A stretch of DNA of 64,000 nucleotides, from the IMG/VR virus record IMGVR_UViG_2926647115_000001; one strand, given 5' to 3'. Every line of letters begins with the position of its first letter. The stretch's first letter is position 1. Source of the DNA: a virus (taxonomy: Duplodnaviria > Caudoviricetes). Both the position numbers and the translations under genes were made by a program. This document shows positions 5,192-34,099 of this stretch, in pieces. A model generated the notes under the pieces. That model worked only from the letters and a program-made list of their open reading frames with translations, searched no databases and was not told where the DNA came from.

Positions 5192-6781
5192 TCATCCGAA
5201 CGGACGCCCGCCGGGTTGCGGACCGAAACCGCCACCGAAGCCGGGCAGCGTGCCGTACGGGTTGACCGCGCTGTACGGGTTGACCAGCTGTGACCCGCCC
5301 ATCGCCGGGTGCGCCACCACTTCCGCCGGCTCGTTGCGAATCGGGAGCAGCTCGTAGGCGAGGTACACGCTGGCGTCGATCCGGCCCGGCGATTCGGTGT
5401 CGCTGGGCCGCCACGAGTACCACTCGGACTCCAGCTCGGGCAGTTTCGCCCCGAGCCGCAACCGGTCCTCCACGAACTGTTGCGCGATCGGTTCGGCCCT
5501 CAACTGCTTGCCCTTGCGGGCCCGGACCGGCTTGACCTTCGGCGCGAGCCGCTGGAATCGCTCGTCGTCGGGCCGCTCACGTTGCAACGCCTCCCACGAC
5601 GACTTGATCACCACCTCGGCCTGGTCGCCGCCGAAGTTGTGCTCGTAGAGGACCACGTCGGCGTCGATGTCCGCCGCGAGCAGCGCTGCCGCCCGGCCCC
5701 ACTCGCGGGACGGGCCGGTGATGCTGGCGTCGTGGGTGATGTAGACCCGGTCGTCGGTGCCGAGGAAACCGCCGATGATGCCGGCCAGGTCCCGGCCGCC
5801 GCCGGACGGGTCGATCGCCACCGCGCTGCGACGCGGCGCGGCCGGGGGCGGCAGGTGCCACCGCTCCCGCAGCTGGTCCGCGGTGACGAGCGCGCCCGTC
5901 ATGGGCTTGGGGTCGCACATGTAGAGCGACACCCAGTCCCGGGCGGTGATCGAACGGCGCCGCCGTTCCCAGAACTCGCGCAGCGCCTCGACGTCGTCGC
6001 TCGGGATCTTCGGGTGCGTCAACGGCTCCCCAGGGGCCCGGCCGAGCTGGTCGTTGACGTCGGCGAACGCCGGGAGCTTCACGACCCGCCAGGTGCCGCC
6101 GTCCTCGACGCGTCCGTCTTGCTGGAGCACGCGGTGGGCGAGGTCGTCCGGGTGCCAGAGGGTCATGATCAGGATGACCGGTGCGCCCGGAGCGAGCCTG
6201 GACAGCATGTCGGCGGAGTACCAGTCCCACACCGCGTCCCGGTAGGCCTTCGACTCGGCCTCGGCTCGGGACTTATGCGGGTCGTCGATTATTAGCAGGT
6301 CGCCTGGAAGTCCGGTAACTCCTGCACCAACGCCGCGGCTGGCGCAACCACCTCCAGCAGTCAGCTGCCAGTCGTTGACCTGCCCGGAGCCCCACTCGAC
6401 GGCGATGTTGTACCGCCACCCCTGCGTCGCGACCAGCTTGCGCACCTGCTTCCCTCGCGCGGTGGCGAGGTTGCTCGAGTACGAGCCGATGATGATCCGC
6501 TCGGACGGCTGCCGGGCGAGCCACCAGAACGGCGTCCACACCGCCGCGAGCGTGGTTTTCCCGGTCTGCGGCGGCACCGCGATCAGGAGGCGGTCCCCGT
6601 CGCCGTTCCCAATCCGCGCGACCTCGCGGGAGATCAGATCGAGGTGCGGTCTCCTGTCGTAGCCGGGCGAGCAGAACTGGGCGAGCGCGGCCGGCTCGGC
6701 GAGCGCGGCCTGCGCCGCGCGCCGGTGCTGCTCGGCCAGTTCCGCCAGCGCCGACGGCGGCAGGTCGGCGACCGCGGTCAC
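5192..6781 (-). CDS. terL: Terminase large subunit
   Basis: Walker A PPQTGKT, Walker B LIIDDPHK, C-terminal nuclease AIDPS..SPGRIDA. Confidence 0.92.
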   Translation of the reverse strand: MTAVADLPPSALAELAEQHRRAAQAALAEPAALAQFCSPGYDRRPHLDLISREVARIGNGDGDRLLIAVPPQTGKTTLAAVWTPFWWLARQPSERIIIGSYSSNLATARGKQVRKLVATQGWRYNIAVEWGSGQVNDWQLTAGGGCASRGVGAGVTGLPGDLLIIDDPHKSRAEAESKAYRDAVWDWYSADMLSRLAPGAPVILIMTLWHPDDLAHRVLQQDGRVEDGGTWRVVKLPAFADVNDQLGRAPGEPLTHPKIPSDDVEALREFWERRRRSITARDWVSLYMCDPKPMTGALVTADQLRERWHLPPPAAPRRSAVAIDPSGGGRDLAGIIGGFLGTDDRVYITHDASITGPSREWGRAAALLAADIDADVVLYEHNFGGDQAEVVIKSSWEALQRERPDDERFQRLAPKVKPVRARKGKQLRAEPIAQQFVEDRLRLGAKLPELESEWYSWRPSDTESPGRIDASVYLAYELLPIRNEPAEVVAHPAMGGSQLVNPYSAVNPYGTLPGFGGGFGPQPGGRPFG

Positions 6782-7350
6782 GACGCCTTGCCGCCCTCGA
6801 CCACCCGCAGCACCGACCGCGCCATCTCCGCCGCCCGGTCACGCACCTGCTCGGGCGACAGGTCCTTGAACTCCTCCACCTGGATCGGGCCGCGGTCGGC
6901 GCCGGTCAGCTCGATGACCTGGTCCGGCTTGTCCAACGCCATCCGCCGGAACACCTCGACCATGCGCGCCCACCCCGGCATGTCCTTCGGGTCGAGCACG
7001 GTCTTGCGGTCGATGTGTTGCCGCACGCTGTGCGACAGCACCGCGGTGGCGGCGGTGGCGAGCATCATCTGGCGTTCGGCCAGCGAGATCTCCTGCTGCA
7101 TGATCGCGGCGCGCCGCTCGCGGGTGCGGTGCCCGTCCCACTGGGCGACCCGTTCCCGCCACCGGTACTTCTCCGCCGCGTCCGCCACCGTGGAGCGGTC
7201 CAGCCCGTACTTCTCCGCCACCGCGGCGAATGACCGCTTCCCCGGCTCCATCTCCAGGTAGTCGTTGAACCGCGCGAACTGCCGGTCGGACTCGCCGGGC
7301 TGTCGGTCCCACGGATCGCCCTGGTACGGGCCGTTGAGACGCTCCACCAT
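6778..7350 (-). CDS. Probable terminase small subunit (HTH)
   Basis: PWDRQPGES..F..YLEM..RS..WRERVAQWD motif; overlaps terL start. Confidence 0.7.
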   Translation of the reverse strand: MVERLNGPYQGDPWDRQPGESDRQFARFNDYLEMEPGKRSFAAVAEKYGLDRSTVADAAEKYRWRERVAQWDGHRTRERRAAIMQQEISLAERQMMLATAATAVLSHSVRQHIDRKTVLDPKDMPGWARMVEVFRRMALDKPDQVIELTGADRGPIQVEEFKDLSPEQVRDRAAEMARSVLRVVEGGKAS

Positions 7351-7378: not shown

Positions 7379-7966
7379 CTATCGGGCGGCGTCGAGGAAT
7401 TCCGCGCGCGCCGCGGGCTCGGTGAGCAGCACCCCCCGCAGCGCCGTCGTGGTCATCTGCGCGCCCGGCTTCCGCACCCCCCGCACGGCCATGCACGAGT
7501 GCGTGGAGGTCACCTTCACCCCGACCCCGACCGGGGACAGGTGGGTGGCGATCGCGTCGGCGATCTGCTCGGTCAGCCGTTCCTGCACCTGTAAGCGGCG
7601 GGCGAAGTGGTCGACCAGCCGCGGCAGCTTCGAGAGCCCAACAACGTCCTGCCCGGCCGGGATGTAGGCGACCCAGGCGCGGCCGGTGAACGGCAACAGG
7701 TGGTGCTCGCACACGGAGTCGAACGGGATCGGCCCCACGGTGATCATCTGCCCCGAGCCGGTGCCCTCGCCGAACACCCGCGCCAGCAGCGCGGCCGGGT
7801 CTCCCGGCCGATCGGTCATGTCGATCAGCGCGTCGATCACCCGCCGGGGCGTGTCCTCGAGCCCGGCCCGGTCCGGGTCGTCCCCGGTGAGCGCGATCAT
7901 GGCGCGCACGCCCTCGGTGGCGATCTTCCGCAGCCGCGCGGTCTCCGCGGCGTCGGTGGCGTTCAT
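7379..7966 (-). CDS. folE: GTP cyclohydrolase I
   Basis: GLEDTPRRV, SVCEHHLLPF, GLSKLPR, RLQVQERLT, HSCMAVRG. Confidence 0.95.
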   Translation of the reverse strand: MNATDAAETARLRKIATEGVRAMIALTGDDPDRAGLEDTPRRVIDALIDMTDRPGDPAALLARVFGEGTGSGQMITVGPIPFDSVCEHHLLPFTGRAWVAYIPAGQDVVGLSKLPRLVDHFARRLQVQERLTEQIADAIATHLSPVGVGVKVTSTHSCMAVRGVRKPGAQMTTTALRGVLLTEPAARAEFLDAAR

Positions 7967-8712
7967 CGGCCCCGTTCCTCTCCCCACAGCAGCGTGTGCA
8001 AACGGCTGGTGGTGTTCCAGCCGCGCGCGATGACGCCGTCGACCAGGGCGCGGTGGGTGGTGAGCACCTGCTCGGGTGTGACGCCTTCCGGCATCACCCA
8101 CACCGCCCCGGCCGGCACCTGGTGCTCGTCCACCACGGCGGCGATCTCGTCCAGGTCCTCCCGGGTCGTGGCCACGAACTTGAAGCACGCCCGGCCGGTG
8201 GCGGCGATCTCCGCGAACCGGGCGAGCGCCTTGGGGCGGATGCGGCGCTTGGCCGTGTCGGCGCCGTTGTTCGCCAGCTTCGGCGACACCGTGAAGTGCG
8301 CGACCAGCTCGACCACCGACCCGGACGGCGGGATGGTCCCGTTGGTCTCGACGTGCACCTCACCGGCCGCGGTCAACCCGGCCAAGAGGGCGTCCATCGC
8401 GGGTTTGCGCTGGTGCATCAACGGTTCCCCGCCGGTGAGCACGAACAGCGGCACACCAAAGCTCGTGGCCTGCTCGACGATCGCGGCGACCTGGGTGTCC
8501 GGGATCTCCTCCGCAAGGTCGAACCGGGACGCGTCCCACGTGAACGCGCTGTCGCACCACCGACAGGCGAGGTTGCACAGACCGAGCCGCACGAACACCG
8601 CCTGCCGCCCGGTCGCCGGCCCTTCACCCTGGATCGTGCGGAAGCACTCGGCGAACGGCAGTTGCATCGACCGCTGCCCCAGCAGCCGCCCGAGGTGCAG
8701 CCCGGCCGTCAC
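7963..8712 (-). CDS. queE: 7-carboxy-7-deazaguanine synthase (radical SAM)
   Basis: TIQGEG, CNLACRWCD, LTGGEPL, ETNG, VSPKL; GTG start overlaps queD stop (alternative ATG 8667). Confidence 0.93.
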   Translation of the reverse strand: MTAGLHLGRLLGQRSMQLPFAECFRTIQGEGPATGRQAVFVRLGLCNLACRWCDSAFTWDASRFDLAEEIPDTQVAAIVEQATSFGVPLFVLTGGEPLMHQRKPAMDALLAGLTAAGEVHVETNGTIPPSGSVVELVAHFTVSPKLANNGADTAKRRIRPKALARFAEIAATGRACFKFVATTREDLDEIAAVVDEHQVPAGAVWVMPEGVTPEQVLTTHRALVDGVIARGWNTTSRLHTLLWGEERGR

Positions 8713-9149
8713 GGGGCCACCTCGGCGCGGTTGTTCTCGGTCTCCTGCACCACGACACGCGCCACCCGCAGCGGCGTGGTGTAGCCGCCGACGATCTCCG
8801 CCGCCACCCGGGACAGCAGCTCGGCGACCGCCTCCACCGTGGGCCACGACAGGTCGCGCGCCAGGCGGTGCTCGCCGAACCGGAACACCTTCAACCCGCC
8901 ATCGACGAGCCGGGCCGCCCACTCGTCTTCGGCGCCGAGCAGCATGCCGTGGTCGAGGTTCTGGTCAACCCACCGTTGCAGCGCGGCTTTCAGCTCCCCG
9001 AAGTCGACCACCACGTCCTGGTCGTTCATCGTCCCGGCGACGGTGATCCACCCCTGCCACGAGTGGCCGTGCAGGTTGTGGCACTTCCCGGGCAGCTGCG
9101 GGAGCCGGTGACCGGCCTCGAACCTGACCCGGATGGACACGTTCGTCAC
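8709..9149 (-). CDS. queD: 6-carboxytetrahydropterin synthase
   Basis: FEAGHRL..KCHNLHGHS, VVDFGELK, LDH, PTVE, VQET. Confidence 0.93.
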   Translation of the reverse strand: MTNVSIRVRFEAGHRLPQLPGKCHNLHGHSWQGWITVAGTMNDQDVVVDFGELKAALQRWVDQNLDHGMLLGAEDEWAARLVDGGLKVFRFGEHRLARDLSWPTVEAVAELLSRVAAEIVGGYTTPLRVARVVVQETENNRAEVAP

Positions 9150-9817
9150 GCGGCCACCTCGTACACGGTCGGGTCCGCCACCCCGGAGTCGGCGAACGCT
9201 TCGCGCCGCTCCACGCAGGTGCCGCACTGTCCGCAGTGGACCTCGCGGCCCTCGTAGCAGGACCACGTCAGGCCCACCGGCACGGCGAGGTCCCCAGCGC
9301 GGGCGGCGATCGCGGTCTTGGAGATGTGCACGAACGGCGCGTCGAGGGTGACGGCACCGTCGGTGCCCAGCTCGATGGTGCGGCGTGCGGCGTCGACGAA
9401 CTCGGGCCGGCAGTCCGGGTAGATGGGGTGGTCCCCGGCGTGCATCGCCGCCACGACGTGGGTGCAGCCGGTGGACAGCGCGACACCGGCGGCCGCCATG
9501 AGAAGGGTGGCGTTGCGGTTCGGCACGACCGTGGCGGCCATCGACGGCGCCGCGTAGTGCCCGTGCGGTACCGCCACGTCGGTGTCGGTGAGCGCGGACC
9601 CGGACAGGTGGGTGCCCCAGGAGGTCAGGTCCAGGACGCGGTGCTCGACACCGTAGTGCGCAGCGACCTCCGCGGCGGAGCGCAGCTCGCGGGCGTGCCG
9701 CTGCCCGTAGTTCACCGACAGCGCCACCCGGGCGGTGCCTTCGGCGTGCCGCAACCCGAGCGCGGTGGCGGAGTCCAGCCCGCCGGAGAGCAGGACAAGG
9801 TCGCGACGTTCGGTCAT
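9146..9817 (-). CDS. queC: 7-cyano-7-deazaguanine synthase
   Basis: LSGGLDS, YGQRH, VPNRN, YPDCRPEF, TWSCY..CGQCGTC. Confidence 0.95.
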   Translation of the reverse strand: MTERRDLVLLSGGLDSATALGLRHAEGTARVALSVNYGQRHARELRSAAEVAAHYGVEHRVLDLTSWGTHLSGSALTDTDVAVPHGHYAAPSMAATVVPNRNATLLMAAAGVALSTGCTHVVAAMHAGDHPIYPDCRPEFVDAARRTIELGTDGAVTLDAPFVHISKTAIAARAGDLAVPVGLTWSCYEGREVHCGQCGTCVERREAFADSGVADPTVYEVAA

Positions 9818-10719
9818 CGGGTGGTCTCCTTCGCTAGAACGGTGTCGCGGATGAGGGTGATGTCGGCGAGGTTCCCGGCGGCGAGGTAAACCTTGAGGCC
9901 GTCGCCGGTGGTGCTTCCCGACCGCGGGGCCGGCACGGTGCCGCGCCAGCCGCGGACGTGCGCCTCGTACCGGCGGAACGACTCGATCGTGGCGCGGTTC
10001 AGCCATTCGCGGTCCCTGCTGCCGCGCGGGCCGACCTCGCGCACGAGCGCGAACCCGGGTGTGGACACGTGCGTCGGGTTGCCGCCGTAGGCGCGGATGA
10101 GGTTGGCGTGCTGGGCCGCGCGTCGGTCACCGACGCGGAAGGTCTGGAAATGCCTGCCGTTCCACAGTGTCAAGGTGCCGGTGCGGGAAGCCGAGTTCCA
10201 GTAGGACGAGTCCACCGAGTACCACGGCAGGATGTGCGGGTACGGCGGCCGGGTCAGCCCGAACCCGTGCAGCCGGGTGTTGTAGTCGCGGGCGATCTGG
10301 TGGGCCTTGATCAGCCACCGCATCATCGCCATCTCCCGTTTCGCGAGGTGCACGGCGCCGCCGAGCGCCACATACGGGTGCTCCGCGCACAGCCGGTGCA
10401 GCTCAGGCCACGGGCTCCCGACGTGGAACGCGGGCATGATCGTGACCCGGCCGCCAGTGCGGGCCAGCAGCCGCTCGGTGTTGCGGGCCGTCGCCACCGG
10501 GTCGCCGATAACGTCGAGCGTGGCCGCGCAGTTGATCACCGCGGCGTGCTGGGTGAGCCAGTCGCCGTACTCGTCGATGTCCACCGATCCGCCTGTGGTG
10601 AAAGCGCTGAACGCGCCGCTGTCGGCGAAGAAGTCGACCCCGGGTCGCTTCTTCAGCTCCGCGGTGAGGTCGAGCTTGCGCAGGTAGAAGTACGACCCGA
10701 GGACGTGAACCGCGGTCAC
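9814..10719 (-). CDS. dpdA: DpdA-like DNA 7-deazaguanine transglycosylase (TGT fold)
   Basis: FFADSGAFS, LDVIGD, ALGG, LHGFG, WYSVDSSYW; coupled to queC. Confidence 0.75.
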   Translation of the reverse strand: MTAVHVLGSYFYLRKLDLTAELKKRPGVDFFADSGAFSAFTTGGSVDIDEYGDWLTQHAAVINCAATLDVIGDPVATARNTERLLARTGGRVTIMPAFHVGSPWPELHRLCAEHPYVALGGAVHLAKREMAMMRWLIKAHQIARDYNTRLHGFGLTRPPYPHILPWYSVDSSYWNSASRTGTLTLWNGRHFQTFRVGDRRAAQHANLIRAYGGNPTHVSTPGFALVREVGPRGSRDREWLNRATIESFRRYEAHVRGWRGTVPAPRSGSTTGDGLKVYLAAGNLADITLIRDTVLAKETTR

Positions 10720-14722: not shown

Positions 14723-15090
14723 CAGACCGGTCCTCCCGGTTGCGCGTCGGCCAGGGGCTCCACCGGCGCGGGCAGGTGGTCGAGCTGGTGCAGCAGCCCG
14801 GACCCGCTGCACTCGCGGCAGAGCACCAGGACGCCGGGCTCGCCGCCGTCGACGACCCTGTCCCCCGCCCGCGGCGCGCGTGGGTGGGTGTTGCGCTCGA
14901 GAGTGTCGGCGGCGTCGGAGAGCAGGTACACCCACTCGGCGTCGCCCATCTCCACCGCGCGCTGCCGCAGCGCGCGCACAGCGGCGATGGCCCCGCCCCG
15001 CGCGACCGCGTTCGGCTCGGTCCCGTCAGGGAGCCGGTCTGCGGCGCGGTCGGCGGCGTGGGCGATACCGAGGGCCAGTTCCACCGTCAC
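14722..15090 (-). CDS. Hypothetical protein
   Basis: GTG start overlapping upstream stop; GC3-rich frame. Confidence 0.5.
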   Translation of the reverse strand: MTVELALGIAHAADRAADRLPDGTEPNAVARGGAIAAVRALRQRAVEMGDAEWVYLLSDAADTLERNTHPRAPRAGDRVVDGGEPGVLVLCRECSGSGLLHQLDHLPAPVEPLADAQPGGPV

Positions 15091-15491
15091 TGGGCCACCG
15101 CCTTGTCGACGGAGAAGCGCAGGGTGCGGGTCGGGTCGTCGGTCAGGGTGTAGGTCTTGCCGCCGTCGGTGCTGAACGCGGCCGGGTTGCGGCGGGACTG
15201 GTACAGGCCGGGCTGCCCGGCCACGGCCTCGTCGTGCTCGAACCACTCGGCCGGGTCGGTGGTGAGCGGCGACAGCGGCTGGAAACGCGCGAGCGTGCTG
15301 AACACCTCCACGGTGTGCTCGGCACTGAATCCGGAGTGCCCACCGCCCGCGAACACGCGGATCAGGTCGAGGAGGTGGCCGCGCATCGGGTCTTCCTCGC
15401 CGATCAGGTCCAGCTCGCGGATCGCGTGCTGCACCAACGGGGACTCCGCCGTCGTGTCCTCGGGGTGGGTGGGCTGCTGAGGGTTGGTCAC
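15087..15491 (-). CDS. Conserved phage hypothetical protein
   Basis: HAIREL..F..GHSGFSA..PLSPLT..EW..QSRR..FS.DGG motif typical of phage proteins. Confidence 0.6.
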   Translation of the reverse strand: MTNPQQPTHPEDTTAESPLVQHAIRELDLIGEEDPMRGHLLDLIRVFAGGGHSGFSAEHTVEVFSTLARFQPLSPLTTDPAEWFEHDEAVAGQPGLYQSRRNPAAFSTDGGKTYTLTDDPTRTLRFSVDKAVAQ

Positions 15492-17997: not shown

Positions 17998-20565
17998 CTA
18001 CACGGTCACCCCTGCCGCACGGCGCAGCGCGCCGACGTTCACCGCGTTCCCGCTCGCCGTGCGCTTGAACGCGGTGTCCGGCAGGTTCCACGGCGCCTGC
18101 CGCAGCGACGTGCCGAACCGGCCCGCCTCCAACCGGGCCTGGGCCGCGTCCTCCGCAGTCACCGCCCCGGCCTCCCGGCCCAGCTCCCCGACCAGCTTCC
18201 ACTCGTCGTCGCCCAGCTCGTCGATCGCGGCGATCACCGGCGCCATCACCGCGATGTCGGCGCGGTCCGTCTCACGCGGAGCCGGGACACTGTCGCCGGC
18301 CTCCTCCCGCATGACCTGCCGGATGCGGGACTCAAGCACGTCACGCTGCCAACCCAGCTCGTCGCCGCGCCGCTCCGGCACCAGCTCGTACGGCTCGGCG
18401 GTGAAGTACGCGACCAGCTCGTCCCCGGCGGCGTCGATGTCGGCCCGCGGCGCGTCCCGGGCCACCAGGTGCGCGGCCAGGGCGAGCTTCCAGGCAGCGC
18501 AGAACGCGGGCGCGTTGCTGGCCTTGATCGCGCTGATCACCCCGGAGCGGATCGCCGACCGGCGCTTCCGCTCGGCCGCCATCCGCTCCAGGGCAGCCTC
18601 CATCGCGGCCGCCTCGCTGTTGAAGTCCAGGCTCCTGGTCATCGTCTCCTCCTGGGGTGTGTCCATGCCGTTGTTGGGCGTGGCCCATACCCCCTCGGGG
18701 TCTAGTGTCCCGTGATCAGGGGAAACAATCAACTCGCTTGGCGTTTCCGCTGGTCGCGGGTTGAGGTGTACCGCGCCCGTCACCTCGGGGGAAATCCGCG
18801 GGTACGGCAGGCCCTGGCTTTCCAGGAAGTCGGCCAAGTCCTTCTGCCGCTCCGGGTTCCACCGCTCGGTGTAGGACTCGCCCATCTCCCCCACCAGCCA
18901 CGCAGGCAGGGTCGGCCGGTGCGGCGTGTAGGCCACGGCCATCGCGCTGATCGCTCCCAGGTCCAGTTCCCCGTCGCGCACCAGCGAGTACGCCTTGGAC
19001 GGGATGACGCGCGCCTGCTCCCGGTTGGGCTGGACCATGAAGGTGTTGTTCCGCAGCTTGGTGGTGTCCACCGACTTGATGCCGTTCAGCGTCGCGGAAC
19101 CGTCGTGGTAGCTGTTGGTGCGGCCGGCGATGCGCACGTTGATGTTGCGCAGAGTGTTGGTGCCGTGGGGACCGAGGGCGTCGACCAATCCGAACTGGGT
19201 CAGGAAGAACACGCCGTAGCCCGCGGAGCGGGCCATGGAGCAGATCTCGTCGAGTAGTGCGGACGCGGTCCACACCCGGCCGTCGAACGTCTCGATCTTC
19301 GGTTCGGTGATCTTCGCCAGGGAGGTGGCCTCGTCGATGATCAGCACGAGGGCTGGGTCTTCGGGGGTGGGTTTGCGCTTGTCGACGAACCCGAGCCGCT
19401 TGTTCTGCAGGCTCGCGGCCATGTAGAAGTCCGCGAGCATCAGAAGGACTTCGTCGATGTTTTCGCCACCGATGCGCTGGATCACCGGACGGTCGGTGAG
19501 CCCGGTAAGCCACGGGTGCAGCCACGGCCCGACCAGCGGCATCATCTTCTTCACGCCGCAGCACCACAGCTCGAGGTCGTGGCGGCGCACGAACTCGGCG
19601 ATGAAGTTGTGCGCCAGGATCGACTTGCCCGACCCGGTACCGCCGACCACGACGGTGTGCTCACCGAGCATCGAGATCTCAATGGGCTCGCCGTCCTCAT
19701 AGATGCCGGGGTTGACCGGCTCCTTGATCGTGGTGACCGGCCGGATTCCGGGGTGGGGCACATCCTTCTTGAGCGGCTGCTTCGTGGAGACGTGCAGCAG
19801 CCACACGTGAGCCATGCTGGTTTCCTCGGCGCGGATGTCGTTGACGCCCAGCTCGATGCCTTGCTTGGCGTAGTGCTTCGAGGCGAGCACCGCCAGCGTG
19901 GGGATCGCATCGGTCAGGGCGGTGAACGTGGCCACCTGCCCGTCGGTGGGGTCGTCCGCGAGGGTGAGGGTGTACCCGGCTTTGGTGTCGGTGAAGTCGT
20001 CGACCACGACGCCGCCGAGCCTTTCGCACTTGGCCAGCCACGGTCCCCAGAGCTGCTGATAGGTGGAGGCGCGGAGGTGGCGTTCGTGCTCGGCGCGGCG
20101 TTCGGCGATCTCTTCCTTCTGCTCGGCGCGCTCGGCTTGGCGCTGGGGTTCCTTGGAGCGCCAGAGGGCGTAGGCGATACCGAAGGTGACGGTCCACAGC
20201 ACGAGCAGCCCGAGGGCGGTGGGGTTGGTGGGGTCACCGTCGGCGAACACCAGCCACCCGGTGGCCGCGAGGCCGGCGGCGATGGTGAGGCGTTTCGCGT
20301 GGGTCTCGTGCTTGGCGCCGAAGGTGTCCTCGTCCACCCACACGCGGGCGGTGATGACCGCGGCCGCGGTGAACGCGAGCCCGGTGGGGGCCATGACCCA
20401 GCCGGGGAGGTGCATCCAGTGGGGCAGGAACGCGAGCGCGTAGAGGGCGAGCGCGGCGAGCAACGGGTGGAACCACCGCTTGTCGGGGTCCCAGTCAGTT
20501 GGGATGGGGTCGAGGGTCGCGTCGACCACGGGGGGCGTGGTCTCCGCCTTCTCGGTCGTGGTCAC
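17998..20565 (-). CDS. traB: FtsK/SpoIIIE-family TraB-like conjugative DNA translocase
   Basis: N-terminal TM helices, Walker A GGTGSGKS, Walker B LIIDEA, ARSAG..LTQ. Confidence 0.75.
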   Translation of the reverse strand: MTTTEKAETTPPVVDATLDPIPTDWDPDKRWFHPLLAALALYALAFLPHWMHLPGWVMAPTGLAFTAAAVITARVWVDEDTFGAKHETHAKRLTIAAGLAATGWLVFADGDPTNPTALGLLVLWTVTFGIAYALWRSKEPQRQAERAEQKEEIAERRAEHERHLRASTYQQLWGPWLAKCERLGGVVVDDFTDTKAGYTLTLADDPTDGQVATFTALTDAIPTLAVLASKHYAKQGIELGVNDIRAEETSMAHVWLLHVSTKQPLKKDVPHPGIRPVTTIKEPVNPGIYEDGEPIEISMLGEHTVVVGGTGSGKSILAHNFIAEFVRRHDLELWCCGVKKMMPLVGPWLHPWLTGLTDRPVIQRIGGENIDEVLLMLADFYMAASLQNKRLGFVDKRKPTPEDPALVLIIDEATSLAKITEPKIETFDGRVWTASALLDEICSMARSAGYGVFFLTQFGLVDALGPHGTNTLRNINVRIAGRTNSYHDGSATLNGIKSVDTTKLRNNTFMVQPNREQARVIPSKAYSLVRDGELDLGAISAMAVAYTPHRPTLPAWLVGEMGESYTERWNPERQKDLADFLESQGLPYPRISPEVTGAVHLNPRPAETPSELIVSPDHGTLDPEGVWATPNNGMDTPQEETMTRSLDFNSEAAAMEAALERMAAERKRRSAIRSGVISAIKASNAPAFCAAWKLALAAHLVARDAPRADIDAAGDELVAYFTAEPYELVPERRGDELGWQRDVLESRIRQVMREEAGDSVPAPRETDRADIAVMAPVIAAIDELGDDEWKLVGELGREAGAVTAEDAAQARLEAGRFGTSLRQAPWNLPDTAFKRTASGNAVNVGALRRAAGVTV

Positions 20566-20831
20566 GGGTCCTCCGGGGGAATGCCGAGTCGGTGGGCTTG
20601 GTCGCGGGTGAGGATCACGTACCCGGCGTTGCGCAACAGCGCGACGAGGGCGTGGGGGTCGAGGTGGTCCAGCGGGTCAGGCTCGGCGACGTCGACGACG
20701 ATCGACCCGGATGGCAGCCGCCGGGCGTGGACGCCTTCGGGCAGCTTGTCCTGCTGGAACCAGCGGTAGGCCGTGGTCGGCGCAATGCCGTGCTGTCGGG
20801 CCCACTGTTTGAGGTAGATCGTCGTCGGCAT
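20562..20831 (-). CDS. IS607/MerR-like HTH protein (excisionase/regulator-like)
   Basis: LKQWARQHGIAPTTAYRWFQQDKLP; no resolvase domain. Confidence 0.7.
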   Translation of the reverse strand: MPTTIYLKQWARQHGIAPTTAYRWFQQDKLPEGVHARRLPSGSIVVDVAEPDPLDHLDPHALVALLRNAGYVILTRDQAHRLGIPPEDP

Positions 20832-20929
20832 GGCGCTGATAGTGCCAGGTGTACCGCTGTGGCCGGTCTAGCTGCGGGTTTCGTGGCGGGTGGTCGGGTT
20901 GTCGCTCATCGCGGTCCTCCTGTTGCGAA

Positions 20930-20967
20930 CGGTTGCGGTACCGATAGTCCCAACAGTACCGCAACCG
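20930..20967. promoter_or_regulatory. Inverted repeat CGGTTGCGGTAC-N14-GTACCGCAACCG
   Basis: Perfect 12-bp arms between the divergent HTH-traB and DUF2637 genes. Confidence 0.55.
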
Positions 20968-21018
20968 CTAGACTGTTGTGCAACACACCACCGGCCACAC
21001 CGCCCCCGAGGGAACACC

Positions 21019-22359
21019 GTGAACGACATCCCGCCCGCCACGTACAGCTGGTGGCACCGCTGGCGCCTCGGCTCGATCGAGGTCACCCGCGCCAAGCACG
21101 CCGCCGACGCCGAACGCAAGGCCGCCCAGGAACGCGACCGCAAGACCAAGCAGCGCGACACCGCCGCCGAGCGGCGAGCCCGCCGCATCCGCCGCCGCGA
21201 CTGGCTCGTCGAGCACCGCGCCCTGATCGCCACGGTCTCCGCCGTCACCGTCTCGGTCGCCGTCGCGATCCCCGCCCAGGCGCTCTGGTTCGTCCACGTC
21301 CTCGCCAGCGGCCAGCTCGGGCTCAACCCCGAAAGCCTCATCGCGCTCGCCTCCCCCGTGCTCATCGAGGGGCTGTGCTGGCTCGGCGCGTTCCTCTACG
21401 CCGACAGCCTCGGCCGCGACACGCCCGTGCGTGCCTACCGGCTCACCACGTTCCTGTTCGCCGGCATCGCCGCAGCGATCAACTTCGCCCACGGCTGCGG
21501 CATCAACCCGATCGTCGGCGTTGTGTTCGCGATCGCGTCCCTGATGGGCGTCGCGTCGTGGGAGCTCTACATGCACCGCACGCGGCACATCGCCACCGGG
21601 ATGACCGCGGACGAGATCCGGCTGTGGTTCAAGCGGCGTGTGTTCGACCGCAAGGTCTACCGGGAGATGCAGCGTCTCCGGCGCACGTTCGGGGCGCAGG
21701 TGCCGCTGGAGTCCGCGTGGCGCATGGGGTACCTCCGGGTGCACGGGGCGCCCACGGTTCCGGTTCCGGTTCCGCGGGACCTGCTGGACTGGTTCCGCAA
21801 GGACGGTTCCGCACGTGGTTCCGCGGACGGTTCCGACGGTTCCGGCACCGGTTCCACGCCCAGTTCCGAGGGCGGTTCCGGCTCGGGTTCCGTCGCGGTG
21901 CTCGACCGGTCCAAGGACGGTTCCACGGTGGAGGTCCCGGTGAACTGGGACCAGTTCCGCGACGTCGACTCCATCATCGCGGCGCACTGGCCGGAGCTGG
22001 ACCCCGCGAACCACCCGGACCCGTCACTGCACCAGGACGACGCCAAGCGCCGGCATCCCGCGTCCGGCCTGCACGTCGAGGAACCTGCCCCGGCGTCCAC
22101 CAGCGGCCCCGCCACCAGCGCGGCCCCGGAACAGGAACCCGAGCCGCGACCGCTGCCGGGACTCAACCGGGAGGAGCGGAACCTCGGCGTGACCGGCGGC
22201 GCCACCGCGGCGCTGCACCGGTACTTCGACCGGATCGCGTCCGAGGGGCACGACCCGGACGACGTGAACCGGCAGGAACTCGCCCGGGAGCTCGGGTGCT
22301 CGGCGCGGAACGTCGGCAAGGCGCTGGCGAAGTGGGCGAAGAACCGGAACCACGCGTGA
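21019..22359 (+). CDS. DUF2637-like (Spd/Kil-type) plasmid spread membrane protein with C-terminal HTH
   Basis: Coiled coil, four TM helices (AAAINFAHG), low-complexity linker, LARELGCSARNV HTH. Confidence 0.65.
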   Translation: MNDIPPATYSWWHRWRLGSIEVTRAKHAADAERKAAQERDRKTKQRDTAAERRARRIRRRDWLVEHRALIATVSAVTVSVAVAIPAQALWFVHVLASGQLGLNPESLIALASPVLIEGLCWLGAFLYADSLGRDTPVRAYRLTTFLFAGIAAAINFAHGCGINPIVGVVFAIASLMGVASWELYMHRTRHIATGMTADEIRLWFKRRVFDRKVYREMQRLRRTFGAQVPLESAWRMGYLRVHGAPTVPVPVPRDLLDWFRKDGSARGSADGSDGSGTGSTPSSEGGSGSGSVAVLDRSKDGSTVEVPVNWDQFRDVDSIIAAHWPELDPANHPDPSLHQDDAKRRHPASGLHVEEPAPASTSGPATSAAPEQEPEPRPLPGLNREERNLGVTGGATAALHRYFDRIASEGHDPDDVNRQELARELGCSARNVGKALAKWAKNRNHA

Positions 22360-22480
22360 CCTGGGGCGGGAACCACCGGAACCGGTCGGGAACCGCCGAG
22401 GAACCGGGGACGAACCGCCCCCGGTCCGCCACGGAACCGGCCACGGAACTGGTTCCGGACCACCACCGAAGGAGAACCGC
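21755..22480. repeat. Polarised GGTTCC/GGAACC short-repeat array (candidate clt)
   Basis: About 12 GGTTCC copies in 21755-21925, then GGAAC(C) copies from 22080 to 22480. Confidence 0.75.
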
Positions 22481-22822
22481 TTGGCCCCAACCCGCACCTC
22501 CGCCGCGCCCGTGCCGGCGACCGACGAGGACCGATCCCCCCGACCTGGCGACCGCGTCCTCGTCGCGATGCGGAACCAGGGCATCGTCGCGTCAGGCGGC
22601 GGCGTGTTCCACGTCGACGAGAACGGCGACTTCCCGAACAAGGACCTCGTCGCACGCGGCGAGGCCACCGTGCACGTGCTGCCGCCCGAGGTCCGCACGC
22701 TTCCGGTAACCCGGGAGGCGCTGGCCGAGTTCTTCGGCCCGATCCGGCTGCCCAACGGCGCGAACGTCACCGGCCACTTCGTGCAGCTCGCCCTGGCCCT
22801 GCACCGCGAAGCGCAGCGGTAG
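22481..22822 (+). CDS. Hypothetical protein
   Basis: AAGGAG RBS; TTG start. Confidence 0.55.
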   Translation: MAPTRTSAAPVPATDEDRSPRPGDRVLVAMRNQGIVASGGGVFHVDENGDFPNKDLVARGEATVHVLPPEVRTLPVTREALAEFFGPIRLPNGANVTGHFVQLALALHREAQR

Positions 22823-22901
22823 CGGCGTCGCGGACTGCCGGTTGCAGCAAGGGCCCGTCATCGACGAGATCGGTGACGGGCCCTTCGTCGTCCCTTGGCC
22901 A

Positions 22902-23203
22902 GTGGAACCCCTTGTGCTACCTCTGACCTGCGAAAACTCCGCGGGTGGAACGGGTGTGGAACGTCGGTGCGGCGGCTGGTTCCACTGGCCAAGGTCCGCC
23001 CTGGTCGGTGTGGAACAGGTGTGGAACCCGCACCGCGGATGCCCGTGCTACCGGTGAGCTGCTGCGATGCGCCGCCAGGCCGGCATGTGGAACGGTGTGG
23101 AACCGCTCCGCGCCGGAGGGGGGTGGGTGATCGTTTCCGCAGGTCATGATCGCGTACCCCATGTCGTGTCGTGTGTGGAACCTCGGGGTTCCACTGGTTC
23201 CAC
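22902..23203. repeat. GTGGAAC iteron-like cluster
   Basis: 8 direct and 3 inverted copies in an intergenic region. Confidence 0.75.
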
Positions 23204-23218
23204 CGCATGGATATGGGA

Positions 23219-23249
23219 AGGCCCCGACACCGCGAGGTGTCGGGGCCTC
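23219..23249. terminator. Hairpin terminator
   Basis: AGGCCCCGACACC-GCGA-GGTGTCGGGGCCT. Confidence 0.65.
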
Positions 23250-23260
23250 GGCGTGCAGTT

Positions 23261-23860
23261 TCAGTCGCGGGTGCGTCGGGTGACGTCGACGGCGCCGAGC
23301 CGGTCGAGCAGGTTGCGCAGCTGGTCGAGAGTGCGGGGCTGCTCGGCCGCGAGCGCGGCGAACAACTCGGGCACGTCGGTGAACGCGGCGAACGCGTCGT
23401 CGAACAGCGACACCTGCAGCGCGGGCCTCCCGGCGAGGTGGTGTTCCTGGACGGTGAAGTCCCATTTCACGCCGTCGCGGCCGGTGTCCGCGCTTGCGGA
23501 GATGTTGATGGCCGGTACCTCGCCCGCGTAGGCGGCGTCGGCGAACCACGCCTCCTGCTGCACGAAGTAGGTGAGCAGGCAGTCGTCGCCGATCCGGCGC
23601 GGCACCGCGGCAATCCCAGCGGGCGCGGGCCCGGTGTTCTTCCCGACCTGGCTCTCGTGCCAGGCCGCGGCCTCTCGCCACTTCCGGGTGCCTGTGGGGT
23701 GGTGCACGGTTCCGCGGGCCTCGTGGTCGTTGGCCCTACGGGCCAGTTCCCGGGCGGCCCACAGGTTGTAGGCGTCCCAGTCGGCTGGGGTGTACTCGGT
23801 GAACGGCTTGTTGCGGTGCTCGGCGGTGTTCCCGTAGGCGGTGAGGGCGGCGGTGTCCAT
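23261..23860 (-). CDS. Hypothetical protein
   Basis: AGGAG RBS; GC3 bias. Confidence 0.6.
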   Translation of the reverse strand: MDTAALTAYGNTAEHRNKPFTEYTPADWDAYNLWAARELARRANDHEARGTVHHPTGTRKWREAAAWHESQVGKNTGPAPAGIAAVPRRIGDDCLLTYFVQQEAWFADAAYAGEVPAINISASADTGRDGVKWDFTVQEHHLAGRPALQVSLFDDAFAAFTDVPELFAALAAEQPRTLDQLRNLLDRLGAVDVTRRTRD

Positions 23861-23923
23861 GGCGTACTCCTGTTCTCGGTGGGGGTGGTGCCGCCTCGCG
23901 TGGTGGCGGGGCGGCCGGGCGGG

Positions 23924-24793
23924 TCACTTCGCGGCGGCGGTCTCGCGGTCGTACTTGGCCTGGGCCTTGGCGAGGATCGCGTCCTGCTCGGTCTCGGGGG
24001 TGGTGCCGCGCTTGTGGGCGAGCGCGGCGGCGCACAGGCGGATCGTTTCGCGCATGGCGTCGGCGTAGCTCGAGTTCGGGTACAAGAGCAGATCTCCGGC
24101 GGCCTGGAGTGCGGCGCGGTGGGCGGCGGTCTCGGTCTTGAGGGTGCGGGTGCCGACGTAGTCGGGGATGACCAGCGGGGTGCCGTCGGGGTTGCTGATG
24201 GCCTTGGCGGCTGCTGCGGCGGCTTTCGCGGCCTTGGCGGCGGCCGCGGCTTCGCGCTCCTCGCGGGTCTTGCGTTGGTTGGGGCTTTGGATGCGGGAGG
24301 GGCGGCCGGACTCGATGATGGCGCGCTGGTCGGGGAAGCAGGTGAGGCAGGACAGCGACCCGGCGGCGTCGACGGCCTCGGCCGCGGTGGCGCCGGACAG
24401 CTCGGTGACCCAGTACCACTGGGTGCTGGCGTAGGTGTTGCGGCACCGCTGGGTGGTGTGGAGGTGGCCGTTGGTGTTGTCCACCAGGTAGTAGCGGGTC
24501 CAGCCGCCGCGGCGGTCGAACTCGTCGAGGAGGGGCCTGAGGTCACGGGCGCTGAGTTGCGCGGCATCGTCGTAGGCGCGGTCAATCCGGTGCTGCAACT
24601 CGGCGATGTTCTCCCGCTGGCGGGCGAGGGTGTCCGGGGTGACGAACTGGGCGCCGGCGTTCATGTGCTCGATGGCGCGTGCCTTCTCGCGCTGCGTCTG
24701 CTCGGCCTTGGCGTGGTGGGCGTAGATGGCGGCCGTGACGCGGGCGATCTCGGTGTCGATCTCGGCGGGGGTCTTGGTGGCGAGGCTGGTCAT
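23924..24793 (-). CDS. Conserved actinophage hypothetical protein
   Basis: GGWTRYYLV..GHLH....C....T.W..CLTCFP motif; GAGG RBS. Confidence 0.65.
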   Translation of the reverse strand: MTSLATKTPAEIDTEIARVTAAIYAHHAKAEQTQREKARAIEHMNAGAQFVTPDTLARQRENIAELQHRIDRAYDDAAQLSARDLRPLLDEFDRRGGWTRYYLVDNTNGHLHTTQRCRNTYASTQWYWVTELSGATAAEAVDAAGSLSCLTCFPDQRAIIESGRPSRIQSPNQRKTREEREAAAAAKAAKAAAAAAKAISNPDGTPLVIPDYVGTRTLKTETAAHRAALQAAGDLLLYPNSSYADAMRETIRLCAAALAHKRGTTPETEQDAILAKAQAKYDRETAAAK

Positions 24794-24823
24794 CGCGGTT
24801 CCTCTCGTCTCCCTGTTGCGCTT

Positions 24824-24846
24824 AACCTTACACAAGTTGCGCAACT
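24824..24846 (-). promoter_or_regulatory. 23-bp promoter/operator AACCTTACACAAGTTGCGCAACT (exact copies at 40484 and 49199; variants 26137, 49301)
   Basis: Minus-strand reading AGTTGCGCAACT palindrome + TGTGTAAGGT extended -10. Confidence 0.75.
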
Positions 24847-24894
24847 TTCACAACTGGGCGGAGGTGCGGTCCAGCACACCCCCGCCCCGGACCG

Positions 24895-26100
24895 CTACTC
24901 CTCGATCGCCTTGCAGCGGGTCAGCTGGGTCTCCTTCTGGCCGTTCCACTCCTTGTGCGCCTTGATCCAGCACTTGCGGAGGGTGAACCAGGTGTCGCCG
25001 GGCTCGTCGCCGAGCGCGTCCTTGGAGGCGAACCACTTGAACAGGTAGCCGTCGTCGGACACCAGGGTGTACACGGTGCTCGTGCCATAGGCGTTCTGGC
25101 TCCAGGACACGTTGCGCACCTGCACCCGCACCTCGACGTCCCGCTGCCCGACCGTGCCGTAGAACTCGTCCCGGACCTCGGCGCGCTCCCGCTGCCGGAT
25201 CAGGGTCTGCTCGTTGTGGCGTGCCCACGCCTGCGGCGCCGACACCGCCAGCCCCAGGTTCCAGGGGGACACGGCGTCGGCGGCGGCGATCGCCTTGAGG
25301 TTGCGCACGTACTCGCTGTCCCCGGGGAAGTCGTCGGACAGGATGAACTCGCGGATCTTGGCACCCATCCCGGCGGCCTCGGCGATCTCGGCCGCCATCT
25401 CCGCGGCCAGCTGGCGGGCGTTCTTGTTGCGCGGGTCGAGCAAGTCCCCGACCACAACCTTGGTGGGGACCCCGTTCCAGTCGTTGGCGCGGACGTAGCC
25501 GTACCGCTTGATCGCAGCCCACGCGGCGGCAAACACGGTGTCGGTGGTGAACTCGCGCGGGCAGTACCCACCGTCGCCCAGGAGCCCGTCGATCTCGTCG
25601 CGCAGGTCGTCGGCATAGACGAACACCGGGGTTGCGGTCCAGCCGAGGAAGTCCTTGATGCAGGTGGAGCCGACCTGGATCTGCTCGCCGGCTTCGTTGC
25701 GGAGCAGGTAGGTGGCCTTGCGGTGGCGGTGGGTGCGGCAGTGGCCGCACCAGCCTTCGTGCAGGCCGTCGCGATTGACGGTGTCGATGCCGGGGGCGGT
25801 GCGCACGATCAGTCCGGCGTTGGGGTCCCAGTCCAGGGTGGCGAGGAAGGTCCAGCCGTTGTAGCGCGGGGCGTCGCCGGTGATGCGGGTGTCGTAGACG
25901 ATCTCGGTGACCTGGAGCCCGCCGACCTCGCGAGTGGTTTCGCGGCGGGTGGCGTGGACCTCGATGCGGCCGGTGAAGCCGCGCTTTGCGGCGCGGGTGT
26001 TGATCTTGGCGATCTTGTTGCGGGTGGCCTCCAGCTCGTCGGCGGTGAGGTGCCAGGTGTGGGCCTGGGTCTCGGTGGTGGTGTCGAGCGTGGCGGTCAT
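24895..26100 (-). CDS. Conserved phage protein, Zn motif and probable C-terminal OB-like domain
   Basis: CGHC..R..QVGSTCIKDF; C-terminal KAHKEWNGQKETQLTRC. Confidence 0.65.
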   Translation of the reverse strand: MTATLDTTTETQAHTWHLTADELEATRNKIAKINTRAAKRGFTGRIEVHATRRETTREVGGLQVTEIVYDTRITGDAPRYNGWTFLATLDWDPNAGLIVRTAPGIDTVNRDGLHEGWCGHCRTHRHRKATYLLRNEAGEQIQVGSTCIKDFLGWTATPVFVYADDLRDEIDGLLGDGGYCPREFTTDTVFAAAWAAIKRYGYVRANDWNGVPTKVVVGDLLDPRNKNARQLAAEMAAEIAEAAGMGAKIREFILSDDFPGDSEYVRNLKAIAAADAVSPWNLGLAVSAPQAWARHNEQTLIRQRERAEVRDEFYGTVGQRDVEVRVQVRNVSWSQNAYGTSTVYTLVSDDGYLFKWFASKDALGDEPGDTWFTLRKCWIKAHKEWNGQKETQLTRCKAIEE

Positions 26101-28273: not shown

Positions 28274-28683
28274 ACCGGACGTTCCCGAACCTCGCGAGCA
28301 CCGTCGAGGAGATGCGCAAGTCCATGCAGGAGCACTACGGCGTGTGGGTGTGCTTCGTCGGCGACGACGGCGACTTGGTGGCTCTCGGCCACCACGAGCC
28401 GAAGCGTGTGCTCGCGGCTTTCAACCGCTACTGCCGGATCGAGCTGAGCATGCGAAACGTCGCGGACGACCGGGACGTGTCCTACAAGGAAGCCGCGGAG
28501 ATCCTGCGGTGGCGGCACGGGCGGTTGATCACCGCGTGTGAGTCACCTGACCACGACGATGAAATCCGGATGGGTCACAGCTGCCACCAGTGCGCACTGC
28601 TCGGCGGCGGCGGCGAGTGGTGGCTCGACTGGTCGAACCCGGAGCACCCGGACGCGTTCCCCATCACGATGTGGCAGGTGTGA
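28270..28683 (+). CDS. Hypothetical protein
   Basis: GTGA-coupled ORF. Confidence 0.55.
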   Translation: MNRTFPNLASTVEEMRKSMQEHYGVWVCFVGDDGDLVALGHHEPKRVLAAFNRYCRIELSMRNVADDRDVSYKEAAEILRWRHGRLITACESPDHDDEIRMGHSCHQCALLGGGGEWWLDWSNPEHPDAFPITMWQV

Positions 28684-29192
28684 TCGTGGTCGATCCCGAG
28701 AAGACGCGGGCTGCGGTGGACACGGTTGCCCGCCGGGTGCTGGCCGACGCTGCGCGGACCGCGCTGGAGTCCGGGCGCGTCGGCTGGGAGGACTACCCGG
28801 AGCTGGACGAACGGGACTGGATCGCTGTCACCGAACGGGCCCGGAAGCTCGCCGCCACGCTGCAGCACTCCGAGGCCATGTACGCCGAGGCGTACCGGTA
28901 CCTCGCTGCGCAGGCCGAGCCCGACGGGCATGTCACCAGGCCCGACCCGGGGGATTTCCGGGACCGGTTCATCTACGCCGTGCAGCTCGTGACCTCGCGT
29001 CAGTTCGGCGCGAAGTCGATGGTGGCGCGGAAGTTGGGCACGGGGTGGAACGAGACGGTGCGGCTGTTCGAGCTTCTGGAGGGTTGGGGCGTGGTCGCGC
29101 CGACCGTCGGGTCGATGGCCCACAAGGTGTTGATGTCCGAGGCTGACGGGCGGGCGCTCGTCGCCGAGTTGCAGAAGGGGGAACGGGCGTGA
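28680..29192 (+). CDS. Protein with stand-alone FtsK gamma winged-helix domain
   Basis: AVQLVTSRQFGAKSMVARKLGTGWNETVRLFELLEGWGVVAP..GS...VL follows the FtsK-gamma consensus. Confidence 0.7.
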   Translation: MIVVDPEKTRAAVDTVARRVLADAARTALESGRVGWEDYPELDERDWIAVTERARKLAATLQHSEAMYAEAYRYLAAQAEPDGHVTRPDPGDFRDRFIYAVQLVTSRQFGAKSMVARKLGTGWNETVRLFELLEGWGVVAPTVGSMAHKVLMSEADGRALVAELQKGERA

Positions 29193-33815: not shown

Positions 33816-34028
33816 CGTGTCGGCACCCCAGCCGCACGCCTGTAGGGAAGCGGCCCCCGCGCCGGTCCCCGGCCGGAGGAGCGCGCGCGGCGGCCGCTTG
33901 CCGTCCGGCCTCCCACGGCCCCTGGGACCAGCCAGGACTGGTAGGCGTGTCCCCAGCTTCGTCGCCTGCGCAGGGCGACCCTGTTTCCGGGTGTTGCGGC
34001 GGCTGCTGCGCCGGCCGCCGCACCGGAG

Positions 34029-34099
34029 AGGTGATGGCGGGAATCGAACCCGCGTGGACGGCTTTGCAGGCCGTTGCCTAGCCACTCGGCCACACCACC
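34029..34099 (-). tRNA. tRNA-Cys(GCA), CCA not encoded
   Basis: Acceptor GGTGGTG/CATCACC, D-loop GAGTGG, anticodon arm CGGC-CTGCAAA-GCCG, GGTTCGATTCC, discriminator U. Confidence 0.93.

Follow-up and report, generated by a model that had tools for sequence, protein, structure and literature searches.

A 64,000-nucleotide stretch of DNA from a tailed virus (IMG/VR record IMGVR_UViG_2926647115_000001; the whole stretch is hereafter the window) contains a gene for a membrane protein of the DUF2637 type, and this gene and its 3' flank carry a dense array of the DNA word GGAACC, with approximately 40 copies of the core GGAAC, including 30 full hexamers, in about 1.5 kb (1.45 kb for the hexamers). 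The array is real, it is selected as DNA and conserved in relatives, its word changes together with a helix-turn-helix (HTH) domain at the C-terminus of the membrane protein, and the gene that bears it is linked to a gene for an FtsK-type DNA pump. Very probably the array is a protein-binding cis element of some kind. The reading that we favour, at somewhat less than an even chance, is that of a docking array similar to the plasmid loci clt and sps, probably read by the membrane protein whose gene encloses it and serving the adjacent TraB-like pump.

Layout of the array

The window, which corresponds to positions 532,631-596,630 of a single 7.3-Mb chromosome, has a G+C content of 70%, and its genes were laid out from the frame analysis of third-position G+C (GC3). 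The membrane-protein gene defined by its GC3 frame encodes 446 aa at 21019-22359 on the plus strand (the longest open reading frame (ORF) starts at 20890). The left arm of the array (21756-21959) is oriented towards the minus strand, on which GGTTCC reads GGAACC, and spans the TVPVPVP strand and the first, presumably disordered, linker of the protein. It holds 12 copies of GGTTCC within 169 bp (21756-21924), and all 16 GTTCC cores up to 21954 share this orientation, with none in the opposite one. From 22080 the orientation flips to GGAAC(C), in 14 of the 15 copies up to 22445, including those in the last codons of the gene. Runs of this kind are non-random (P about 3e-5 for 16/16 and about 1e-3 for at least 14/15). 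The coding part of the right arm (22080-22359, plus strand) runs from the second linker through the HTH domain to the last codons. An earlier note on this DNA, made from the letters and ORF translations alone, had described about 12 GGTTCC copies in about 170 bp of the DUF2637 gene, a flip to GGAAC(C) through the 3' end and into the spacer, and a VPVPVP/GS peptide; the counts bear out the first two points, and the peptide was read correctly, as TVPVPVP is followed by a GS-rich stretch.

Two non-coding arrays follow, the second of which is additional to the earlier account. Array I (22346-22460, plus strand) consists of seven sGGAACCg words in an 11-bp phase and ends in the palindrome GGAACTGGTTCC. 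Array II (22893-23203, not assigned to one strand) contains 11 copies of GTGGAAC/GTTCCAC, mostly as direct pairs spaced 10-11 bp, together with a perfect 17-bp inverted repeat and a conserved inverted repeat of TGACCTGCGnAAAC, and is bracketed by G+C-rich hairpins at 22849-22885 and 23219-23248, both of which are free of T-tracts. Helical phasing at 11 bp was strong in array I (R 0.92) and array II (R 0.89). Apart from the GTGGAAC words, TGACCTGCGnAAAC and its reverse complement lie at 22923-22937 and 23133-23147 of the window, and TGACCTGCGnAAAC recurs at about 7667, 7790 and 7870 of locus L001 of the related phage PIS 136 (see below); it might serve as another site for a protein or as a promoter element. 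A consensus scan of 20400-23400 found no sigma-70 promoter or intrinsic terminator, an Rfam scan gave no family (with a sub-threshold sar match on one hairpin), and a comparison of array II DNA with plasmids returned no meaningful match.

The cluster adjoins the pump gene, beginning 1.2 kb from it, and stands out at every scale. The window contains 78 hexamers vs 41 ± 6 in shuffled sequences, and the array forms the densest 500-bp bin of the 7.3-Mb genome, where hexamers occur at a background of 0.37 per kb per strand; elsewhere in the prophage their density is approximately 0.9 per kb on both strands. The other chromosomal bins rich in GGAACC (about 1.998, 1.938 and 5.862 Mb) proved to be unrelated long-period tandem repeats. 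Tandem repeats with a period of approximately 100-300 bp, apparently non-coding, lie at about 1,998,100-1,998,900 and 5,862,400-5,862,900 of the chromosome, both outside the window.

The earlier note had pointed to the oriented KOPS sequences read by FtsK and had suggested that the switch point marks a site of bidirectional loading or resolution. Neither was supported. Outside the array the GGAACC/GGTTCC counts in the prophage are 16/17 on the left side and 26/35 on the right, and the corresponding counts in PIS 136 (18/26 and 29/38) likewise reveal no strand skew. Such a role of the switch receives no comparative support because a clean change from minus to plus occurs only in the window phage and PIS 136, and orientation is mixed in more distant relatives.

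The words are selected as DNA

Codon choice in the first linker is unusual, with GGT used for 8 of 11 glycines (background 7.9%) and GTT for 3 of 8 valines (background 3.2%). Across the gene, copies on one strand translate as GS, (T/P)VP and WFR, and copies on the opposite strand as EEP, QEP, RNL and RNH; the hexamer thus occurs in all three frames, on both strands and in at least 8 peptide contexts. When synonymous codons were permuted, the expected count was 8.8 ± 2.1 (maximum 16) vs 24 observed. We also used an unbiased statistic, in which the most frequent 6- or 7-mer in a gene's 3' half is compared with the same statistic after permutation; this gave z = 5.7-6.3 for the window gene and 9-10 for that of PIS 136, and the half encoding the membrane domain was not enriched. 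Throughout the family, word counts exceeded all synonymous permutations at 7 of 9 loci (z 5-11).

Comparison with Saccharomonospora phage PIS 136 (temperate, 94.9 kb), the only related record in the phage collection, gave a similar result. Between 39 and 41 kb this phage has 19 GGTTCC and 23 GGAACC in the same places as the window, with background levels elsewhere. Its counterpart of array I has 10 copies (R 0.90 at 10.5 bp), and the words and layout of array II are also present (L001 7640-7950), within an unannotated 1.3-kb spacer that follows its membrane gene. In the pairwise alignment the hexamers are kept and the bases between them differ. The words are thus selected as DNA, because they use rare codons, occupy three frames and both strands, exceed the permuted counts and are kept while their spacers diverge; the suggestion in the earlier note that the linker was shaped by a DNA signal is borne out by the same codon bias, frames and permutations.

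These data also bear on the simplest alternative, that the array has no function as DNA and arose by slippage in a low-complexity sequence encoding a flexible GS linker, helped by chance. The many copies spaced 12 bp apart in a GS-rich, presumably disordered linker would fit such an origin. Slippage in a coding repeat does not account for words in three frames and on both strands, for two non-coding arrays, for a word kept in PIS 136 while the spacers diverge, for counts above every synonymous permutation, or for relatives that keep words with different peptides, and we regard this explanation as highly improbable.

Word and HTH domain in relatives

DNA of further relatives was obtained from IMG/VR, one metagenome-assembled genome and metagenomes, and only loci with nucleotide sequence were compared. 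The 3' halves of the genes at L005, L009, L010 and L013 contain 13-16 copies of CGGAAC(T), and that at L006 contains 14-17 copies of GCGAAC(A); in all five the count surpasses that of any synonymous permutation (z 5-11), with no enrichment in the 5' halves. Counts of k-mers showed CGGAAC(T) to be enriched likewise at L011 and L012. The peptides that these words encode vary widely. Thus the pattern among homologues is the opposite of the one that the earlier note had named as damaging to its proposal (peptide repeats kept and hexamer lost): it is the DNA words that are kept, and the peptides differ.

A more distant example was found on plasmid pSROS01 (L017, NC_013596), where positions 6708-7144 of the DUF2637 gene hold two sets of eight palindromic CCGTACGG words that encode RT(E/D) repeats and flank a small C-terminal HTH-like domain; we found no description of this array in the literature.

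The recognition helix of the C-terminal domain tracks the word. CGGAACC accompanies S[AT]RNV[GS]KA, CGGAACT accompanies SDR[QH]VRN, GCGAACA accompanies SLRYAQIA and, in pSROS01, CCGTACGG accompanies SWCEKAVREA, a covariation that comprises only 3-4 word classes in related sequences with words picked after looking.

The membrane protein and its family

The AlphaFold 2 (AF2) model of the membrane protein consists of a helical membrane domain, two linkers and a C-terminal four-helix HTH domain (residues about 384-445), with a small sheet built by the conserved segments TVPVP and VEVPVNW. The linkers (residues 264-300 and 331-376) have a predicted local distance difference test score (pLDDT) below 50 and are presumably disordered, and both carry the coding arrays. 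The C-terminal domain weakly resembles HTH domains of the CRP/FNR/DeoR type in Foldseek, in which the protein had no significant match; a search of PDB sequences with the membrane protein and the pump gave no match either.

Assignment to DUF2637 (PF10935) comes from a six-frame search of the genome, in which window positions 21238-21591 scored 28.6 bits, above the gathering score of 22.8. The assignment is discordant with hmmscan of the called protein, in which DUF2637 was not listed. The model was matched by 11 of 15 relatives, and tblastn against annotated DUF2637 genes on Streptomyces and Streptosporangium plasmids gave E values down to 4e-18. By sequence comparison, then, the membrane domain is homologous to proteins of plasmid tra operons. 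Plasmids pFP1 and pSROS01 carry their DUF2637 gene in an operon downstream of a GntR (Kor-like) regulator, and the operon, a region of plasmid transfer and spread, also contains an FtsK-like or TraB-homologous gene; that of pSROS01 has an SsgA-family gene in addition to its TraB homologue. Homologues of the membrane protein itself are rare (about 16 in 5.8 billion proteins), and the literature on DUF2637 that we found consists of incidental mentions, with no description of DUF2637 arrays.

The host chromosome has a second DUF2637 gene outside the window (L018; 4,363,181-4,366,606), 2.5 kb from a tyrosine integrase and probably part of an actinomycete integrative and conjugative element (AICE). 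This gene lacks a word array (z about 1).

The adjacent pump and the reader of the word

Divergent from the membrane-protein gene, on the minus strand at 17998-20565, lies a gene for an 855-aa translocase of double-stranded DNA (dsDNA), of the FtsK/TraB type by predicted fold. Its AF2 model (pLDDT 88) has N-terminal membrane helices (hydrophobic helices at 29-137), an FtsK-like motor, a disordered linker and two C-terminal winged-helix-like units, each a strand-helix-helix-hairpin, at 681-855. The best Foldseek matches are FtsK motors (2iut, 2ius and 6t8b; E 8e-12, TM about 0.6, approximately 430 columns), followed by TcpA and EccC; Walker A and B motifs are present, and the protein weakly matches Pfam FtsK_SpoIIIE and the PHROG for FtsK/SpoIIIE-like proteins. 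In all six loci with enough flanking sequence, an FtsK-like gene lies no more than about 4 kb from the membrane gene. A gene for a small HTH protein (89 aa; 20562-20831, minus strand) is translationally coupled upstream of the pump gene and has weak HTH matches; its homologues are 50% identical in PIS 136 and 38% identical in L006. Pump, small HTH protein and membrane gene are common to the window phage and PIS 136. PIS 136 also has a second, shorter FtsK-like paralogue, PIS_039 (L002 33968-35002), which shares 41% identity with the main pump's motor and of which no equivalent was seen in the prophage of the window.

Which of these proteins reads the word was approached by comparing the two phages that share it. 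The HTH of the membrane protein is about 70% identical between them (a hand count from the alignment), with 9 of 12 recognition-helix positions identical. The two predicted winged helices of the pump, by comparison, are 25% and 45% identical, with 3 of 16 and 7 of 16 positions identical in the putative recognition helices. Because the HTH is conserved between the phages that share the word and the winged helices of the pump are poorly so, we favour the former, and the word is probably read by the C-terminal HTH of the membrane protein itself.

The same comparison counts against a classical clt, in which the C-terminal winged helices of the pump would read the arrays, the pump would assemble there and move the phage genome, and the membrane protein would be an accessory, Spd-like partner. 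This possibility derives credit from the TraB architecture predicted for the pump (membrane anchor, FtsK motor and C-terminal winged helices), from the linkage of the pump gene in every locus with enough flank, and from array II, in which the 8-mer-like word GTGGAACs is clustered in direct and inverted orientation, much as the repeats of published clt loci are (PMC3583192). Set against it are the poor conservation of the winged helices between two phages with a common word, the failure to align them in L009 despite a near-identical word, the location of the arrays in and after the membrane-protein gene rather than at the pump gene's 3' end, and the lack of an oriented skew genome-wide; overall, we consider it unlikely. 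The pump C-terminus of L006 also could not be aligned with that of the window, and a region-restricted word search with the C-terminus of the window pump matched only itself.

Two further candidate readers were dismissed, since neither is present at this locus in PIS 136. The first is encoded by a 113-aa ORF (22481-22822, plus strand) that lies between arrays I and II and has a good ribosome-binding site; PIS 136 lacks a counterpart at the same place and contains only a weak match in another part of its genome, and the ORF is probably an insertion rather than an array reader. The second is a stand-alone 170-aa protein (28680-29192, plus strand) whose winged helix matches FtsK_gamma above cut-off (32 bits) and which also matches DUF2742 weakly. 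This protein has no homologue in PIS 136, and a similar segment starts the FtsK-like gene of pFP1 (L016 7493-7705).

A proposed docking site and its alternatives

From the observations above we infer the identity of the binder, the tethering of DNA at the membrane and the transfer of DNA. The locus would serve in cis as a single-copy docking site for a temperate phage of a filamentous actinomycete, offering approximately 40 sites to a sequence-specific DNA-binding domain encoded by the element, most probably the C-terminal HTH of the DUF2637-type membrane protein whose gene and 3' flank bear the sites. Many membrane-anchored copies, bound along the same side of the double helix, would attach the phage genome at this point to the membrane beside the FtsK/TraB-type pump. 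In this way the locus might act like clt, or like sps and SpdA2 of pIJ101, to capture double-stranded phage DNA, which could then be translocated across hyphal septa or into neighbouring hyphae. The fullest form of the idea is a self-contained membrane DNA anchor, in which a protein that reads the words in its own gene's linkers hands the phage chromosome to the TraB-like pump, dsDNA spreads through the mycelium without virions and each lineage has its matched pair of word and reader; we put this forward as tentative and rather doubtful.

The earlier note had called the region the cis-acting transfer locus of its replicon, next to TraB. A clt-like cis site is a reasonable reading because of the DNA-level signal, the FtsK/TraB-type neighbour and homologues that keep words and not peptide, and the neighbour is of the expected type by fold; the replicon, however, is a prophage and not a plasmid, a fact that the earlier account did not include, and the TraB label falls short of the NCBIfam cut-off.

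Several observations, together with the small number of word classes behind the covariation, weigh against the proposal. In the NCBIfam model plasmid_TraB (NF041214) the pump scores 32.4 bits over 84 residues vs a cut-off of 800, and the TraB homologue of pSROS01 scores 219 bits over its full length. The pump, with its predicted TraB-like C-terminal winged helices, could itself be the reader, and the 89-aa HTH protein is a further candidate. The array was not significant in the permutation test at L004 and L014, and among chromosomal DUF2637 genes of the same order 0 of 30 had such arrays, which indicates that the trait belongs to particular phage and plasmid lineages and not to DUF2637 at large. 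The element is, moreover, an integrated tailed prophage, for which conjugation-like spread is hypothetical. Finally, array II resembles the replication iterons GTGGGAAC of pWTY27 (PMC3583192).

This last likeness is the reason why a replication origin is kept at a low probability. The words would then be iterons for a phage initiator, partly intragenic as in lambda O/ori or pSLA2 rep1, with array II as the core. The non-coding arrays are helically phased, contain direct and inverted copies and are insulated by hairpins; the locus is near the major divergence of transcription, and the experimentally defined origin of pWTY27 has GTGGGAAC/TTCCCAC iterons (PMC3583192). The surroundings speak otherwise: an A+T-rich unwinding stretch is absent (minimum GC 0.64 within the arrays), scans of the neighbours found no initiator, helicase loader or Prim-Pol and those of the prophage no Rep or Prim-Pol, a DnaB homologue lies approximately 48 kb away, and the cumulative GC skew has no turn at the array in either phage. 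The gene that hosts the words, moreover, encodes a membrane protein of a plasmid tra-operon family.

A large single-copy cluster phased at 10.5-11 bp (R about 0.9) would also suit a centromere, that is, a parC/ram-like site that positions or partitions excised or replicating phage genomes in hyphae with no pumping. A membrane-anchored candidate binder would follow a logic analogous to that of ParR/parC or RacA/ram. Among the neighbouring genes scanned, however, several of which could not be annotated, there was no NTPase of the ParA, ParM or TubZ type; the phage is chromosomally integrated here and PIS 136 encodes an integrase; and the constant partner is an FtsK-type pump. We thus judge segregation or anchoring alone to be quite improbable.

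Prophage setting and other features

Synteny with PIS 136 in tblastx places the bounds of the prophage at roughly 516-618 kb of the chromosome, a size of roughly 100 kb. Phage genes in the window include those for a large terminase, a Mu-F-like head protein, a WhiB protein and a C5 methylase. Beside the terminase genes, FolE, a QueE-like radical SAM protein, QueD/PTPS and QueC are encoded in a chain (7379-10719, minus strand), which is the 7-deazaguanine DNA-modification set of a temperate phage. A 134-aa protein (15087-15491, minus strand) matches Pfam Tad3, a Thoeris inhibitor (E 9e-30), and a tRNA-Cys gene lies at 34028-34099 on the minus strand; PIS 136 has a tRNA-Cys as well.

A non-coding stretch of 440 bp follows the 113-aa ORF on its 3' side. 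To the right of array II, three genes of unknown function occupy 23261-26100 on the minus strand; they have no Pfam domains, match PHROGs of unknown function and gave uninformative Atlas results, and their homologues are only hypothetical proteins on large plasmids. In the spacer of PIS 136, beyond its array II, there are two A+T-richer repeats of approximately 70 bp (AAGAAGACCAA-type; L001 8040-8130 and 8350-8430), which have no counterpart in the window.

Implications

If the proposed docking site is correct, temperate phages of filamentous actinomycetes carry a working, plasmid-type machinery for dsDNA transfer with its own docking site, and the line between phages and conjugative elements is blurred by a capsid-free route of phage DNA through the mycelium. 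The locus would be a clear natural case of a dense protein-binding code written over a coding sequence and tolerated because the peptide is a disordered linker, and such an overlap of coding and binding would inform both the evolution of overlapping codes and the annotation of genes. Matched pairs of word and HTH would provide orthogonal parts for tethering DNA to membranes, and the system would offer a direct handle on the poorly understood Spd and DUF2637 proteins of actinomycete conjugation.

Comparison with known systems

Published clt loci are 50-180 bp long, contain 4-9 short repeats (7-9 bp, clustered) that TraB/TraA bind with their C-terminal winged helix, and in some cases overlap coding sequence of tra (PMC3583192, PMC4170104). 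The phage locus resembles those of pSVH1, pJV1, pIJ101 and pWTY27 in having short (5-9 bp) direct and inverted repeats beside an FtsK-type pump, for which a membrane anchor and a C-terminal winged helix are predicted in the phage, in the partial overlap with coding sequence and in acting in cis, which is presumed for the phage (PMC3583192, PMC4170104). It differs in its approximately 40 copies over 1.5 kb vs 4-9 copies over 50-180 bp, in the placement of the arrays in and after the DUF2637 gene and not at the end of the pump gene, and in the element itself, an integrated tailed prophage; in addition, the word co-varies with the HTH of the membrane protein rather than with the pump, which scores far below the NCBIfam cut-off for TraB.

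On pIJ101, the protein SpdA2 binds sps, a palindrome within its own gene (PMC4170104), so that a protein of a spread region recognises a motif within its own coding region, as is proposed for the phage locus. In contrast to the dozens of sites and the membrane protein found here, sps comprises one short palindrome, bound by a small soluble protein with an effect on segregational stability; no homology between the two proteins was seen, although no search aimed at it was made. The DUF2637 gene of pSROS01 is closer, as it shares a homologous membrane domain, two one-word arrays in linker DNA around a C-terminal HTH-like domain and a TraB homologue in the operon; it differs in being on a plasmid, in its palindromic word CCGTACGG and in that no non-coding arrays were seen.

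In lambda O/ori, binding-site repeats lie in the linker-coding part of a gene. The iterons GTGGGAAC of pWTY27, which are bound by RepA, resemble the GTGGAAC of array II (PMC3583192). Unlike both, the phage locus lacks an A+T-rich element, its surroundings contain no initiator or replication genes, and its gene encodes a membrane protein of the tra-operon type. An FtsK-type motor and short oriented words are shared with FtsK/KOPS and SpoIIIE/SRS, whose words are dispersed and skewed throughout the replicon, whereas the phage word is unskewed outside one 1.5-kb cluster. What sets the phage locus apart from the known systems is thus its scale, its position in a DUF2637 gene, its likely reader and its host, an integrated tailed prophage.

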